The position numbers and the translations under genes were made by a program. Positions 950 through 3,944 of a stretch of 64,000 nt of DNA are shown piece after piece. A model generated the notes under the pieces. That model had not been told where the DNA came from, searched no databases, and saw nothing but the letters and a program-made list of their open reading frames with translations. The number at the start of each line of letters is the position of its first letter. Within the stretch, counting starts at the first letter, position 1. Origin of the DNA: Candidatus Saganbacteria bacterium (GTDB lineage Bacteria > Margulisbacteria > WOR-1 > XYC2-FULL-46-14); assembly GCA_013202975.1 (NCBI GenBank), contig JABMQY010000136.1:6178-70177 (forward strand), read 5' to 3'.

Positions 950-1237
950 TTACTCGGGAGCATCGCCCCCACTACCTGTACTAACACACACAACAGTGGC
1001 ATCATTTCCGGTGACGAGACAACTGTTGGCAATCGAACCAACAGTACATCCTTGAGCATCGGCATTGGTTCCTGCAGCGCATTTAGCGCCGGCTCCTTGC
1101 TGACAATCTAGCCCCGACGCATCCGAGCCATCACCACAACCCTCTGAAGAACCATCAGCAATACACGCACCCATCGAACCTCCCACTGCAAAGGAGATTA
1201 ACCCCGGGACGCTGTATACAATTGATCTCTCTTCCAT
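950..1237 (-). CDS. Small Cys/Gly/Ser/Thr-rich protein (95 aa, 7 Cys in repeated G-x-C-x-x-G context); function unknown
   Basis: ORF lies immediately downstream of a strong sigma70-like promoter. The composition-biased core follows a ~25-aa N-terminal segment. Confidence 0.5.
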   Translation of the reverse strand: MEERSIVYSVPGLISFAVGGSMGACIADGSSEGCGDGSDASGLDCQQGAGAKCAAGTNADAQGCTVGSIANSCLVTGNDATVVCVSTGSGGDAPE

Positions 1238-1243
1238 ATACGC

Positions 1244-1272
1244 ATTCTATCCCCCCCCCGGCCTCCTGTCAA
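1244..1272 (-). promoter_or_regulatory. Sigma70-like promoter TTGACA-N17-TAGAAT with a C9 (G9 on the coding strand) homopolymer in the spacer; drives 950..1237, ATG 6 nt after the -10
   Basis: The -35 and -10 hexamers are read on the minus strand. Spacer is 17 nt, of which 9 are a homopolymer. Confidence 0.5.
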
Positions 1273-1288
1273 CATTACAAAATTCGGG

Positions 1289-1322
1289 TGAAGTTTTTCT
1301 GATTTTATTAGGATAACAAAAT
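1289..1322 (+). promoter_or_regulatory. Degenerate copy of the TGAAATTT-N14-CGATAT motif (TGAAGTTT-N14-GGATAACAAAAT) followed by ATG at 1323
   Basis: Same 14-nt and 12-nt spacing as the other copies. It is part of the duplicated bidirectional cassette. Confidence 0.3.
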
Positions 1323-1469
1323 ATGAACGCAATTACTGTTCAACCTGCCGGATATTGGGGAAGGAGCGGAATAATTCTTTCCCCAAAAACCCTTAAGGTA
1401 GACTATAAAAACATTGATTCTCATAAAGCCGGACCGGGAAATAAATTTAGAATCCAAACTTATTTGTGA
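1323..1469 (+). CDS. Possible leaderless small ORF (48 aa, MNAITVQPAGYWGRSGIILSPKTLKVDYKNIDSHKAGPGNKFRIQTYL)
   Basis: ATG sits exactly 12 nt after the -10-like element. It is below the ORF-track length cut-off, and there is no other support. Confidence 0.2.
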   Translation: MNAITVQPAGYWGRSGIILSPKTLKVDYKNIDSHKAGPGNKFRIQTYL

Positions 1470-1635
1470 CATCATTTTCACTAAACTCTTAAAATTCTTT
1501 TGACAGAAAAATCTATTAATCGCAGATATTCTTCCATCTCATCAAAAACAGCTTCTTATGATCAAGATGTAAATCAGGTGAAATTTTTGAAATACGTACA
1601 CGATAAAATAATATCAATATTAGGAGGGAATTATT

Positions 1636-2895
1636 ATGTCACCAAAAATATCATTATCCTCAATCGTCAGGACGGCAGCAGCACAAGTAAGAAAAAATCG
1701 AGATCCTCGTCGGGGATGGAATACATGGAGACCAGCTTTTGAAGGCATGGGTTCCATTCCAAAAGAAATGAGTAGCTACGCAGCAAAGCCGGTATTTGAT
1801 AAAGAGGTGCTTCAGTTGCTCATGAGTAATGATGCCCCCATGCCTGATCTTGCAACAGTTGCTGTTGCCCTTTTTTACGGCGTTCCGCTGCTACGCGTAG
1901 AGGGTTGTTCTTTAAGCTTGCAATCAGATCGTATGCCACGCGCAATAGAAAAAAGAGTGAAGGACGGCATTATTTCTGTTCAAGCAACGAAACCAATTGA
2001 TGTCAACAAAGTGCTGGCATTTAACTTAGCAGTTTTAGGAGTTTCCGAGATGAGAACAATCAAAAGTCCGGACTCTCATGGCATGAGGGGACCATATTTT
2101 CGTGATGATAGAATAAACAAAATCCCAAAAAAGGTTACCGAACAAGTTCTCTCTTTAAGTAATGGAAAAGAATGCATAGATCCTCGTTCTGTAGAAGTAG
2201 CAAGGGATTTTCTCAACAAATATTTTCCAGACATACCACAAGATATAATTTTTCGAGATTTAGATGCTAAAGTAATGGCTTTTAATAGCGATGTTTTAAT
2301 AAAGACAAAGACCGTAAATCCAGAAAACATTGCAAAGCAAATCCTATCTCATAACCTTGCACGTTCATGCTACTCTTCTGAATTTGTTCCTTATGATTCT
2401 GTATCCCGGGCAATGCGTTCATTTGAAACATCTGATCCTGAAATAGCAGGAGGGATAATCAAAGCTATTCTCGAAGCGGATAAAATAGAGAAAAGACCAG
2501 GCCCTCATGATTCGAGTGTGGCTTTTTTTGCGGGAAAAGCCTTGTCGATATCTTATGGGCGTGGGTCTTCAAATGCCGATGCCGCTAAGGCAATCATTGC
2601 GGCCGGCTTAACAGATAAGAACCTCTGGGGCAACTCAAGAGATAAAATATTAGGAGAAACATTAGAACATCTTACTTCCGATAGTCCATGGCGGACAGGA
2701 GCAATAATTAAAGAATTGGGATTTGATGGAGAAACCGCTGGCAGGGTCGCATACCACTCAATGGTAGCTAATTATGGCTGGCCGTCAAGGATGGAAAGTC
2801 TACTAAAAGGCTTGGGAATAAGAACAAAAAAAGATAGAGTCGCGTTCGCATCTGGCTTTGGTGTTGGGATAGAAGAGTTAAACGGGGTCCTCTAG
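1636..2895 (+). CDS. Hypothetical protein (419 aa), no recognisable motif
   Basis: Long ORF with a GGAGG-like RBS (ttaggaggg) 6 nt upstream. Confidence 0.5.
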   Translation: MSPKISLSSIVRTAAAQVRKNRDPRRGWNTWRPAFEGMGSIPKEMSSYAAKPVFDKEVLQLLMSNDAPMPDLATVAVALFYGVPLLRVEGCSLSLQSDRMPRAIEKRVKDGIISVQATKPIDVNKVLAFNLAVLGVSEMRTIKSPDSHGMRGPYFRDDRINKIPKKVTEQVLSLSNGKECIDPRSVEVARDFLNKYFPDIPQDIIFRDLDAKVMAFNSDVLIKTKTVNPENIAKQILSHNLARSCYSSEFVPYDSVSRAMRSFETSDPEIAGGIIKAILEADKIEKRPGPHDSSVAFFAGKALSISYGRGSSNADAAKAIIAAGLTDKNLWGNSRDKILGETLEHLTSDSPWRTGAIIKELGFDGETAGRVAYHSMVANYGWPSRMESLLKGLGIRTKKDRVAFASGFGVGIEELNGVL

Positions 2896-3003
2896 GAGCT
2901 TATTCACAGGTTTCTCAGGTTTTAAATATTCTTCCATCTCATCAAAAATGGCTTCTTTTGGAATCATCCCCGCCTTCTTATATTCAATCAATTTTTCTTT
3001 CAT
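2878..3003 (-). CDS. Small ORF (41 aa, MKEKLIEYKKAGMIPKEAIFDEMEEYLKPEKPVNKLLEDPV) driven by the second poly-C promoter
   Basis: ATG 6 nt after TAGAAT. A decayed partial copy (..EAVFDEMEEYL..) lies at about 1500-1560. Confidence 0.35.
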   Translation of the reverse strand: MKEKLIEYKKAGMIPKEAIFDEMEEYLKPEKPVNKLLEDPV

Positions 3004-3009
3004 ATGATT

Positions 3010-3038
3010 ATTCTACCCCCCCCCCGGCCCCCTGTCAA
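3010..3038 (-). promoter_or_regulatory. Second copy of the sigma70-like TTGACA-N17-TAGAAT promoter, with a C10/G10 homopolymer in the spacer
   Basis: Near-identical to 1244..1272; read on the minus strand. Confidence 0.5.
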
Positions 3039-3054
3039 CATTACAAAATTCGGG

Positions 3055-3090
3055 TGAAATTTTTCTGCTAAGTTTTCGAAATATATATAG
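3055..3090 (+). promoter_or_regulatory. TGAAATTT-N14-CGAAATATATATAG promoter-like motif followed by AAAGGAG RBS and ATG 3105
   Basis: Motif copy; overlaps the divergent poly-C promoter cassette. Confidence 0.55.
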
Positions 3091-3104
3091 AAAGGAGATT
3101 ATAA

Positions 3105-3590
3105 ATGATAGTAGGAAAACCCCAGTTAAGGATGATGACCGGATCAATCAGGCTCATGCAGAAAAAAGAGGGACAACCACAACATAAGTGGAACAAAACA
3201 GGACAGATCTATTTTCATGTTGCAGAAGAGAAAGCAGAAAGTGTGGTTATCCAAATAGAGCGACCGGTTCTAAGAAAATTTGTAATGTACCGTGCGGCAC
3301 AGGAGGATCGCTCCCAATTTAACGCTGCGCTCGCATATTTTTCTTCCCCGGCTCCAAAAGAAATAACAAAAATGGGCTTTTCCTCATATGTGAGGAGCGG
3401 CCGCCCGAGAGAATTCGATTTTCCAGTAGAACTTCTTTTTGAAGGGCCAAGGGGAGAAGAAACGATTTATCAGGTAACCTGGGGAATTACCCATACAAAC
3501 AAACCACAAGGGATGGGGTTAATGTATAATTATTTTAGAACCGCCGATACCAAACTTGCAGGCACCGAAAACAGATTTAATCATTTCTAA
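3105..3590 (+). CDS. Hypothetical protein (161 aa)
   Basis: ORF with good RBS, downstream of a motif promoter. Confidence 0.5.
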   Translation: MIVGKPQLRMMTGSIRLMQKKEGQPQHKWNKTGQIYFHVAEEKAESVVIQIERPVLRKFVMYRAAQEDRSQFNAALAYFSSPAPKEITKMGFSSYVRSGRPREFDFPVELLFEGPRGEETIYQVTWGITHTNKPQGMGLMYNYFRTADTKLAGTENRFNHF

Positions 3591-3635
3591 TCATTCACAC
3601 AACTATCACAAAGGGCACGCTTAAAAAATTGAAGG

Positions 3636-3944
3636 TTATGCGCTCCAAGTAGGACTATTGCCAACAGTACAAATAATCACCGCGTTCCCACCCGTGTTAC
3701 AACCAGCACTTCCACCTCCAGTACATTCGTCTGGCATATCGCTCTCCGAATCAGGCCCGCTACCACCTATACATTCTAATCCATCTGCTATAGTCCCCGT
3801 AGTACAGCCTCCGACATCAAAAGCAGAAGGTCCAGTTCCACAATTTGCACCAAATGCTGGGTTTTTTAAAAAATGTATTAGTTTGGGTTCTGCATAACTT
3901 TTTTGATTTATTTTATTCATATGCTCCTCCATGATTTTTTTCAT
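3636..3944 (-). CDS. Small Cys/Gly/Thr-rich protein (102 aa, 6 Cys in repeated G-x-C-x-x-G context); start probably the internal Met at 3932
   Basis: Composition and repeat spacing like 950..1237. A sigma70-like promoter with a C7 tract lies immediately upstream. Confidence 0.5.
   Translation of the reverse strand: MKKIMEEHMNKINQKSYAEPKLIHFLKNPAFGANCGTGPSAFDVGGCTTGTIADGLECIGGSGPDSESDMPDECTGGGSAGCNTGGNAVIICTVGNSPTWSA

Follow-up and report, generated by a model that had tools for sequence, protein, structure and literature searches.

Cys/Gly-repeat peptides of a Candidatus Saganbacteria contig as putative orphan relatives of the ScmA-type precursor, with homopolymer tracts in their promoters

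The window analysed in this work, a 64-kb chromosomal stretch of contig JABMQY010000136.1 of a Candidatus Saganbacteria bacterium, contains two small open reading frames (ORFs), here named pep1 and pep2, whose products of 95 and 102 amino acid residues are rich in Cys and Gly. Both lie on the same strand and are separated by two larger ORFs of the opposite strand (Table 1); in NCBI, the 102-aa product has the tag HQ564_10405 and the 419-aa product of one of the intervening ORFs has the tag HQ564_10395. The pep1 peptide has seven Cys, at positions 25/34/45/53/64/73/84 and therefore with gaps of 9, 11, 8, 11, 9, and 11 residues, and pep2 has six Cys with gaps of 12, 11, 16, 8, and 10 residues. 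The repeat unit of both peptides, C-x-x-G-x-x-[A/P], recurs about every 10-11 residues. It is found at all six Cys of pep2 and, in the form C-x-x-G-x-x-A, at four of the seven Cys of pep1, and no sequence reached these numbers when each core was shuffled 20,000 times with its composition preserved. The other three Cys units of pep1 are C-x-x-x-G. Cys residues make up 7-11% of the core and are isolated from each other, without CxC or CC clusters, and the cores contain no His.

Upstream of the repeats, pep1 and pep2 share an N-terminal segment of about 24 residues with the motif Y-x-x-P-x-L-x-x-F-x6-G. In pep1, this leader comprises residues 1-23 (Y8-x-x-P11-x-L13-x-x-F16 ... S21-M-G23) and in pep2 it reads Y-A-E-P-K-L-I-H-F...A-F-G and is followed by the six-unit core. 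BLASTP shows 38% identity between both peptides across the leader and the first units (E 2e-5) and, on the basis of this alignment, they are homologous. No hydrophobic segment resembling a signal peptide or a transmembrane domain could be read from either sequence. The AlphaFold model of pep2, generated from a shallow alignment of seven sequences, has a predicted local distance difference test (pLDDT) score of 41.7, shows a short leader helix only and is too poor for a fold search; the predicted disorder is compatible with a peptide substrate. A beta-helical antifreeze-like or solenoid arrangement of the Cys repeats was considered and dropped, since no structure was predicted and the leader, together with the gene associations described below, points elsewhere.

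The observations of an earlier sequence-only reading of these proteins are confirmed, and its interpretation is supported in part: both ORFs are present, the eight Cys/Gly heptads that it quoted are all found in the translations, and the lack of an obvious signal peptide agrees with our analysis. The Cys spacing of 8-11 residues holds strictly in pep1 and not in pep2; the shared N-terminal segment exists, at about 24 residues instead of 25-35; and the six to seven periodic Cys/Gly units are better described by C-x-x-G-x-x-[A/P] than by the G-x-C-x-x-G unit first suggested.

The best three sigma-70-like sites in the first 5 kb of the window are located directly upstream of pep2, of pep1 and of a truncated third copy of the gene. 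In pep2, the -10 box TATAAT (3948-3943) and the first ATG (3944) overlap, and therefore translation probably starts at 3932 (MEEH..., homologous to MEER... of pep1) or at 3920 (MNKINQ..., after GGAGGAG). Only 6 nt separate the ATG of pep1 from the -10 box that precedes it, and the pep1 mRNA is therefore probably leaderless. Automatic annotation of pep1 gives a 74-aa product (P0003) which begins at the internal Met22, after GGGAGG, and does not include the conserved leader. The pep2 sequence is 100% conserved in independent assemblies of two Joint Genome Institute (JGI) samples, and in an independent JGI contig (L029) the pep1 gene adjoins the gene of the 419-aa protein.

Seven proteins were retrieved when 1.84 billion cluster representatives were searched exhaustively with a profile, and reading of their contigs added tandem neighbours. 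A degenerate DNA pattern (Y..P.L..[FL]-x6-GANC..G) gave 21 matches in 185,579 species-representative genomes, one of them real (contig L014, from Saganbacteria bin.592) and the rest chance matches; the same pattern found three GC-rich relatives in JGI metagenomes. A word-indexed homolog search with pep2 returned the query alone. Altogether, the family contains 13 members of 82-118 amino acid residues, in which C-x-x-G-x-x-[A/P] occurs 5-10 times at intervals of about 10-11 residues, and most of them belong to two Candidatus Saganbacteria metagenome-assembled genomes (MAGs): HQ564, with at least six members (pep1, pep2, HQ564_04400, HQ564_04405, HQ564_03845, and HQ564_03830), and HQ596 (JABMSE01), with at least three. 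Alignment of the 13 sequences shows an invariant Tyr, Pro and Leu, a Gly located exactly 15 residues past the Tyr, and conserved C-x-x-G columns; the invariant columns (alignment A6) are Y, P, L, G24, G30, G42, C50, G53, C74, G77, and C84. As read from the alignment, 12 of the 13 members have A, S, T or C at -3 from the invariant Gly, which is itself followed by A, E, Y, L or Q or by no residue. A PDB profile search with the family produced only spurious matches to antibody light chains, no Rfam family was detected in positions 1-8000 of the window and no viral relative was found.

The only library family matched by any member is TIGR04252, the NCBIfam model of ScmA (49 positions, curated cutoff of 35 bits), the predicted precursor of the SynChlorMet (SCM) cassette of peptides that are made by the ribosome and modified after translation (RiPPs). 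The pep2 peptide reaches 17.6 bits (E 0.0034) in its 102-aa form and 14.4 bits in its 94-aa form. Four of the nine Saganbacteria-type members match the model, with a best E value of 2.6e-4, and the member P0012 reaches 22.8 bits. The GC-rich members of contigs L033, L036, and L038 show 24.3, 25.7, and 30.5 bits, respectively, and those of L033 and L038 span profile positions 1-49. The profile aligns from the leader Tyr onward, and the family shares with ScmA the architecture of a Y-x-x-P-x-L leader start followed by a Cys/Gly core with G-x-x-C-x-x-G units. Homology of the family to ScmA-type precursors is, in our judgement, highly probable. However, the family peptides are about twice as long as the ScmA model, contain 5-10 Cys units and score below the cutoff; by the curators' standard they are thus not ScmA equivalogs, but distant, longer relatives.

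ScmC, a second protein of the SCM cassette (TIGR04249, cutoff of 125 bits), is encoded in the same genome as the window copies. Contig L042, which comes from the same sample as the contig of pep2 and whose proteins are tagged HQ564 in NCBI, contains three scmC genes interleaved with two family peptides. Its gene order is a partial S26-like peptidase and ScmC1 leftward, a class I S-adenosylmethionine (SAM) methyltransferase and P0012 rightward, a glycosyltransferase of family 4 (GT4) and ScmC2 leftward, a family peptide of 98/103 aa rightward, and a partial ScmC3 leftward. ScmC1-3 reach 252.9, 281.4, and 195.8 bits with TIGR04249, and they match HprK-related kinase A weakly at the P-loop. Two proteins of this MAG have in NCBI the name SynChlorMet cassette protein ScmC [Candidatus Saganbacteria bacterium] (NQU17447.1 and NQU17177.1), and the neighbouring tags are those of the family members HQ564_03830 and HQ564_03845. 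The S26/SEC11-type peptidase (L042 1-182 / L044 1732-1989) is soluble, without an N-terminal membrane anchor, and its gene overlaps the stop codon of ScmC1. It begins with MKEEINQYSLPNLL...GPSMNPT...HRV...GDNN, and its alignment with SEC11 at the catalytic motifs is weak (E 0.066), so that the assignment is supported mainly by these motifs. It is translationally coupled to ScmC1 and may serve as the leader peptidase.

In the GC-rich contig L038, an ScmC-like C-terminus is followed by a family peptide and, 120 nt further on, by a radical SAM gene. The product of the latter contains CPNECPWC and GGEPT and shows generic radical SAM/SPASM matches, including ScmF at 1e-6. Another GC-rich member, P0009 of contig L040, lies between an AAA_33 P-loop protein (519 aa, 1727-3286) and a YgiQ-type radical SAM protein (603 aa, 4395-6206) located 540 nt downstream.

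As in the window, the copies at four further loci are orphans. In L014, a tandem peptide pair is found between ruvC and a gene encoding a 939-aa protein; L006 carries a tandem pair (HQ564_04400/04405) followed by three small membrane proteins; L003/4 shows a single peptide gene after four CheR-like paralogs; and L028 shows a single peptide gene after proS. The three proteins of L006 (858-1740, minus strand; 82-91, 127, and 83 aa) are very hydrophobic, are encoded convergently to HQ564_04400/04405, have no recorded family match and could be immunity- or transport-like. The four tandem paralogs (L004 4240-9946, also L003 261-4242) have 432-502 amino acid residues and carry at the C-terminus a SAM methyltransferase domain of the CheR-like type, lipoprotein- or twin-arginine-like N-termini are seen in two of them, and all are codirectional with P0004 and directly upstream of it. 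Their counterparts are missing from the window, L006 and L014, and they were rejected as a conserved partner. Two methyltransferases are thus found beside family peptides, the CheR-like one at P0004 and a TehB-like one at P0012 of L042, and they are not homologous according to BLAST.

Six of the 11 family promoters contain a run of 7-10 nt of G or C within the spacer between the -35 and -10 boxes (G9, G10, G7, C9, C9, and G8; Table 1). In the approximately 97 kb examined for such runs (the window, L003/4, L006, L014, and L042), all five G or C runs of at least 8 nt are located in spacers of family promoters, which represent about 0.2% of the sequence. The tract can be on either strand and the flanking promoter sequence differs between loci, which argues against a protein-binding site and in favour of selection on the tract itself. 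Both cluster-linked peptides of L042, as well as L006_99, P0005, and P0008, have tract-free promoters. Homopolymer tracts in or near the -35/-10 spacer are found in the phase-variable promoters of Neisseria porA and opc. A phase-variable promoter of this kind is also that of Bordetella fim (PMC1891110). The family promoters have in common with these the 7-10 nt G or C run in the spacer of a near-consensus promoter, and the arrangement has the look of classical slipped-strand phase variation; the known examples, however, regulate surface proteins in pathogens associated with a host, whereas the genes described here encode putative RiPP precursors of an environmental uncultivated phylum. Slipped-strand mispairing at the G or C runs would change the spacer length of the promoters of the orphan copies, and the altered spacer would turn each precursor stochastically on or off. 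Tract lengths are identical across independent consensus assemblies (window/L001/L002/L029 and L003/L004/L005), and switching is therefore unproven; we regard real phase variation by these tracts as doubtful.

We favour, with moderate confidence, the explanation that pep1 and pep2, as orphan paralogs of the SCM cassette's ScmA-type precursor, are functional and modified in trans. The peptides would be made from their own near-consensus promoters, and SCM proteins encoded elsewhere would recognise the YxxPxL leader; among this machinery, ScmC appears related to HprK-type P-loop kinases. Modification would take place on the repeated Cys units, and the leader would be cut after the invariant Gly by the S26 peptidase, giving cores that begin with A-N-C-x-x-G. 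The [small]-x-G sequence which ends the leader fits the -3/-1 rule of S26 signal peptidases, and it thus fits the peptidase encoded beside ScmC1. If the genome encodes radical SAM enzymes of the ScmE/F type, the chemistry would be the formation of thioethers, and otherwise methylation, glycosylation or phosphorylation, as suggested by the neighbouring genes. The leader-plus-core layout of a RiPP precursor, already put forward from the sequence, is backed by the similarity to ScmA, by the paralogs among three ScmC genes of the same MAG and by the relative upstream of a radical SAM gene. The RiPP-precursor reading is therefore supported by family and genomic association, and we infer the chemistry and the processing in trans.

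Several results weigh against this explanation. The pep1 peptide does not match TIGR04252 at E<=1, and every score of the family is under the 35-bit cutoff, including the best one (L038, 30.5 bits). Furthermore, pep1 departs from the family in its first unit, with GAC instead of GxxC, as well as in its three C-x-x-x-G units, and, given its location next to a truncated copy within a rearranged region, it could be decaying. In the SCM cassette, ScmA is encoded together with ScmC, with ScmD, which is PqqD-like, and with two radical SAM/SPASM proteins, ScmE and ScmF, whereas the window copies are orphans with tracted promoters. Pfam analysis of every ORF of at least 120 aa, together with a look at the small intergenic ORFs, found no radical SAM, PqqD, ScmC, LanB/M, YcaO or C39-ABC gene in the 64-kb window, which extends to the whole window the earlier remark that no radical SAM, LanB/LanM or YcaO gene is adjacent. 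No SCM gene, radical SAM gene, RiPP recognition element (RRE), protease or exporter was found associated with the peptides in the window or beside the orphans of L003/4, L006, L014, and L028. ScmD, ScmE, and ScmF were not seen in the Saganbacteria sequences examined, which are short contigs; the cluster fragment of L042, with its three ScmC, S26 peptidase, methyltransferase and GT4 glycosyltransferase, shows no radical SAM gene in 5.5 kb. Full-text literature searches on SynChlorMet, ScmC and the TIGR model numbers returned nothing, and a search on Saganbacteria and RiPPs returned nothing specific. Since the SCM cassette is uncharacterised, precursor and maturase are bioinformatic labels. The constant tract lengths count in the same direction.

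Two other explanations of the peptides are improbable in our view, and about equally so. According to the first, they would be unmodified small Cys-rich secreted or surface proteins, such as bacteriocin- or microcin-like proteins or variable surface antigens, with disulfides, a non-Sec N-terminal export signal and phase variation through the promoter tracts. Their size and Gly/Ser/Thr-rich composition resemble those of class II microcin precursors; the small membrane proteins after the tandem pair of L006 are possibly immunity-like, and no maturase lies beside any orphan copy. Homopolymer tracts in promoter spacers are, moreover, typical of surface and contingency genes (PMC1891110). However, pep1 and pep2 show no signal peptide or transmembrane segment, the pep2 model is disordered and the window encodes no C39-ABC exporter. 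The residue after the invariant Gly (A/E/Y/L/Q) does not form a double-glycine site (GG, GA or GS), and a double-glycine bacteriocin or class II microcin was rejected for this reason and for the missing exporter. An unmodified surface protein also leaves unexplained the similarity to ScmA and the interleaving of family peptides with ScmC, S26 peptidase, methyltransferase and glycosyltransferase genes.

The second explanation is that segmental duplication left the window copies as decaying by-products, homologous to real precursors and no longer processed or functional. The region is indeed rearranged. An 87-nt segment, which spans the promoter together with 8 codons of the gene start, occurs twice (1215-1301 and 2981-3067) with 85% identity. 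The second repeat belongs to the truncated third copy, whose 41-aa ORF consists of the first approximately 13 codons of the peptide gene (MKEKLIEYKKAGM) fused to a copy of the ftcD 3'-end (MIPKEAIFDEMEEYL). Fragments of the ftcD 3'-end are found at 1498-1557 and 2898-2970, besides the true gene end at 3985-4057. The repeated promoter and 5'-end and the ftcD-end fragments indicate that pep1 and pep2 arose by duplication of a unit formed by the ftcD end, the promoter and the peptide gene, followed by rearrangement around the two intervening ORFs. The JGI contigs L001, L002, and L029 all break exactly at this repeat.

This history, visible in three fragments of the ftcD 3'-end and in a copy that is clearly truncated, speaks for decay, as do the neighbouring ORFs without relatives (ORFans), a mobile-element-type pair at the window start and the deviation of pep1 from the consensus in its first unit and three other units. 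The pair (1-743, minus strand) is formed by a helix-turn-helix (HTH) gene, similar to mobile mystery protein A (TIGR02612, 89.8 bits for a cutoff of 122.6), which overlaps a Fic-like ORF (...HKDMFDDTWKWAGEIR...) that is downstream of it and runs off the start of the window; it lies next to pep1. On the other side, both peptide ORFs are intact over 94-95 codons despite a mutual identity of 38%, they keep all the invariant positions (Y, P, L and G of the leader and the C-x-x-G columns) and they retain promoters at 11/12 and 12/12 of the consensus. The complete conservation of pep2 in the two JGI samples is a further argument against decay.

That the peptides are unmodified metal- or redox-active Cys peptides, metallothionein-like or carriers of Fe-S or Cu-thiolate centres, seems very unlikely to us. 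The regular Cys with flanking Gly and the organism, anaerobic as read from the sequence, would suit such a function. However, the family has no metallothionein or metal-binding match in Pfam, NCBIfam or PDB, and its isolated Cys, at the low share of the core given above and without His or Cys clusters, led us to reject a metallothionein-like assignment. The conserved cleavable-looking leader and the association with SCM genes would also be left without explanation, and the metallothionein-like alternative of the sequence-only reading is given up.

The 419-aa and 161-aa proteins, offered in the same reading as partners of the peptides, are hardly credible as dedicated modifying or partner enzymes, since their position, together with good Shine-Dalgarno sequences, is opposed by the location on the other strand, by the lack of any Pfam or NCBIfam match, by their absence from every other family locus (tblastn) and, for the 419-aa protein, the one used in the word-indexed homolog search, by the lack of any homolog except itself among 5.8 billion proteins and by an uninterpretable all-alpha AlphaFold model (pLDDT of 40.5). 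Duplicated ftcD-end fragments on both sides of the 419-aa gene suggest that it was caught in the rearrangement.

Table 1. Location of the peptide genes, their promoters and the surrounding features (positions in the window unless a contig is given).
Feature	Position	Strand	Description
pep1	950-1237	minus	95-aa ORF, putative ScmA-like precursor paralog
pep1 promoter	1244-1272	minus	TTGACA-17-TAGAAT, 11/12 consensus positions; G9 (1251-1259) in spacer, abutting the -10 box
ftcD 3'-end pseudogene fragment	1498-1557	minus	EAVFDEMEEYLRLIDFSVKRILR, compared with EAVFDGMKEYLQLNSFSSKKILK in ftcD
419-aa ORFan	1636-2895	plus	Between duplicated segments; not a conserved neighbour
Truncated third copy	2878-3038	minus	Promoter 3010-3038 and 41-aa ORF 2878-3003
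Truncated-copy promoter	3010-3038	minus	TTGACA-17-TAGAAT, 11/12 consensus positions; G10 (3016-3025) in spacer
161-aa ORFan	3105-3590	plus	Not a conserved neighbour
pep2	3636-3944	minus	102-aa ORF, putative ScmA-like precursor paralog; 98 or 94 aa from the likely starts
pep2 promoter	3943-3970	minus	TTGACA-16-TATAAT, 12/12 consensus positions; G7 (3950-3956) in spacer
Tract in the P0004 promoter	L003 4245-4253 (= L004 9949-9957; also L005)		C9 in spacer
Tract in the P0006 promoter	L006 474-482		C9 in spacer
Tract in the promoter of the 94-aa gene	L014 1550-1557		G8 in spacer

The rest of the window is mainly made up of housekeeping genes: ftcD, ftsH, mazG, mfd, the glycine-cleavage genes, lpxA/B/C/D, gyrA/B, dnaN, dnaA, yidC, and mnmE. 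A replication-origin region is found at 43866-48889, with gyrB, dnaN, and dnaA on the minus strand and rpmH, rnpA, yidD, yidC, jag, and mnmE on the plus strand, and the cumulative GC skew has its minimum at about 44-46 kb of the window. Two FGE-sulfatase (formylglycine-generating-enzyme-like) proteins are encoded at 29438-30280 (minus strand) and 52247-53110 (plus strand); proteins of this type act on Cys in other contexts, and these two are far from the peptides and have no evident link to them. A 73-aa membrane protein with two transmembrane segments (38088-38309, minus strand) ends in a Cys-rich tail, GKGKCGCGCKKSC, and is unrelated to the peptides.

Comparison with described RiPP classes shows partial similarities. 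The thioether RiPPs made by radical SAM enzymes (SCIFF and other ranthipeptides, and sactipeptides) have short leaders read by a PqqD-type RRE and Cys-rich cores, typically with six Cys, and the leader of thermocellin carries YSKPSL. The wider ScmA family is likewise associated with SPASM-type maturases; however, none of the motifs described for ranthipeptides or sactipeptides corresponds to C-x-x-G-x-x-A repeated about every 10-11 residues, and a radical SAM gene directly downstream of the peptide was found only in L038, whereas no radical SAM/SPASM gene is present in the window or at the Saganbacteria loci. Lasso peptide leaders follow the pattern YxxPxLxxxGxxxxxTx, with Tyr at -17 and Thr at -2. 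The Y-x-x-P-x-L part is similar in the family, and its invariant Gly, 15 residues past the Tyr, falls at the place of the lasso Thr-2. A lasso peptide was nevertheless rejected, as the cores have 60-100 residues instead of 15-25, there is no Gly1 with a conserved Asp/Glu at 7-9, and the window encodes no B or C homologs. A lanthipeptide was also rejected, because no LanB/LanC, LanM, LanKC or LanL Pfam domain was found in the window or the fetched loci.

Prochlorosins are produced from many scattered ProcA precursors by one ProcM. The family resembles them in having several divergent precursor paralogs in each genome (at least six in HQ564 and at least three in HQ596), mostly far from the enzymes, with a conserved leader and hypervariable cores. 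The leader, the enzymes and the phylum are different, and the trans processing of Saganbacteria is, as said, our inference. Combination of this layout with the promoter tracts leads to a more speculative model, which we consider unlikely as a whole: a contingency-locus RiPP repertoire, in which each genome would carry at least six divergent ScmA-like genes, mostly orphans with slippery promoters, and individual cells would switch stochastically between precursors, which would be processed in trans by an unusual SCM variant with a triplicated HprK-like ScmC, a leader peptidase of the S26 type, a methyltransferase and a glycosyltransferase, either in place of radical SAM enzymes or in addition to them.

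The family consists of new relatives of a known but uncharacterised SCM precursor, and the promoter tracts in it are a new observation. For the SCM cassette, so far defined by bioinformatics, the family provides a broader precursor subfamily in which the repeat unit, C-x-x-G-x-x-A, is clear. It also provides a prediction of where the leader is cut, at [small]-x-G, in agreement with the S26-type peptidase encoded with it, and a defined set of genes, namely those of ScmC, peptidase, methyltransferase and glycosyltransferase. The Saganbacteria phylum is sister to Cyanobacteria and, to our knowledge, has no cultured member. Even if the tracts never slip, two hypothetical proteins have been cleanly reclassified; if they do slip, phase variation would decide which natural-product precursors a bacterium makes, and we know of no earlier case in which it governs such a choice.

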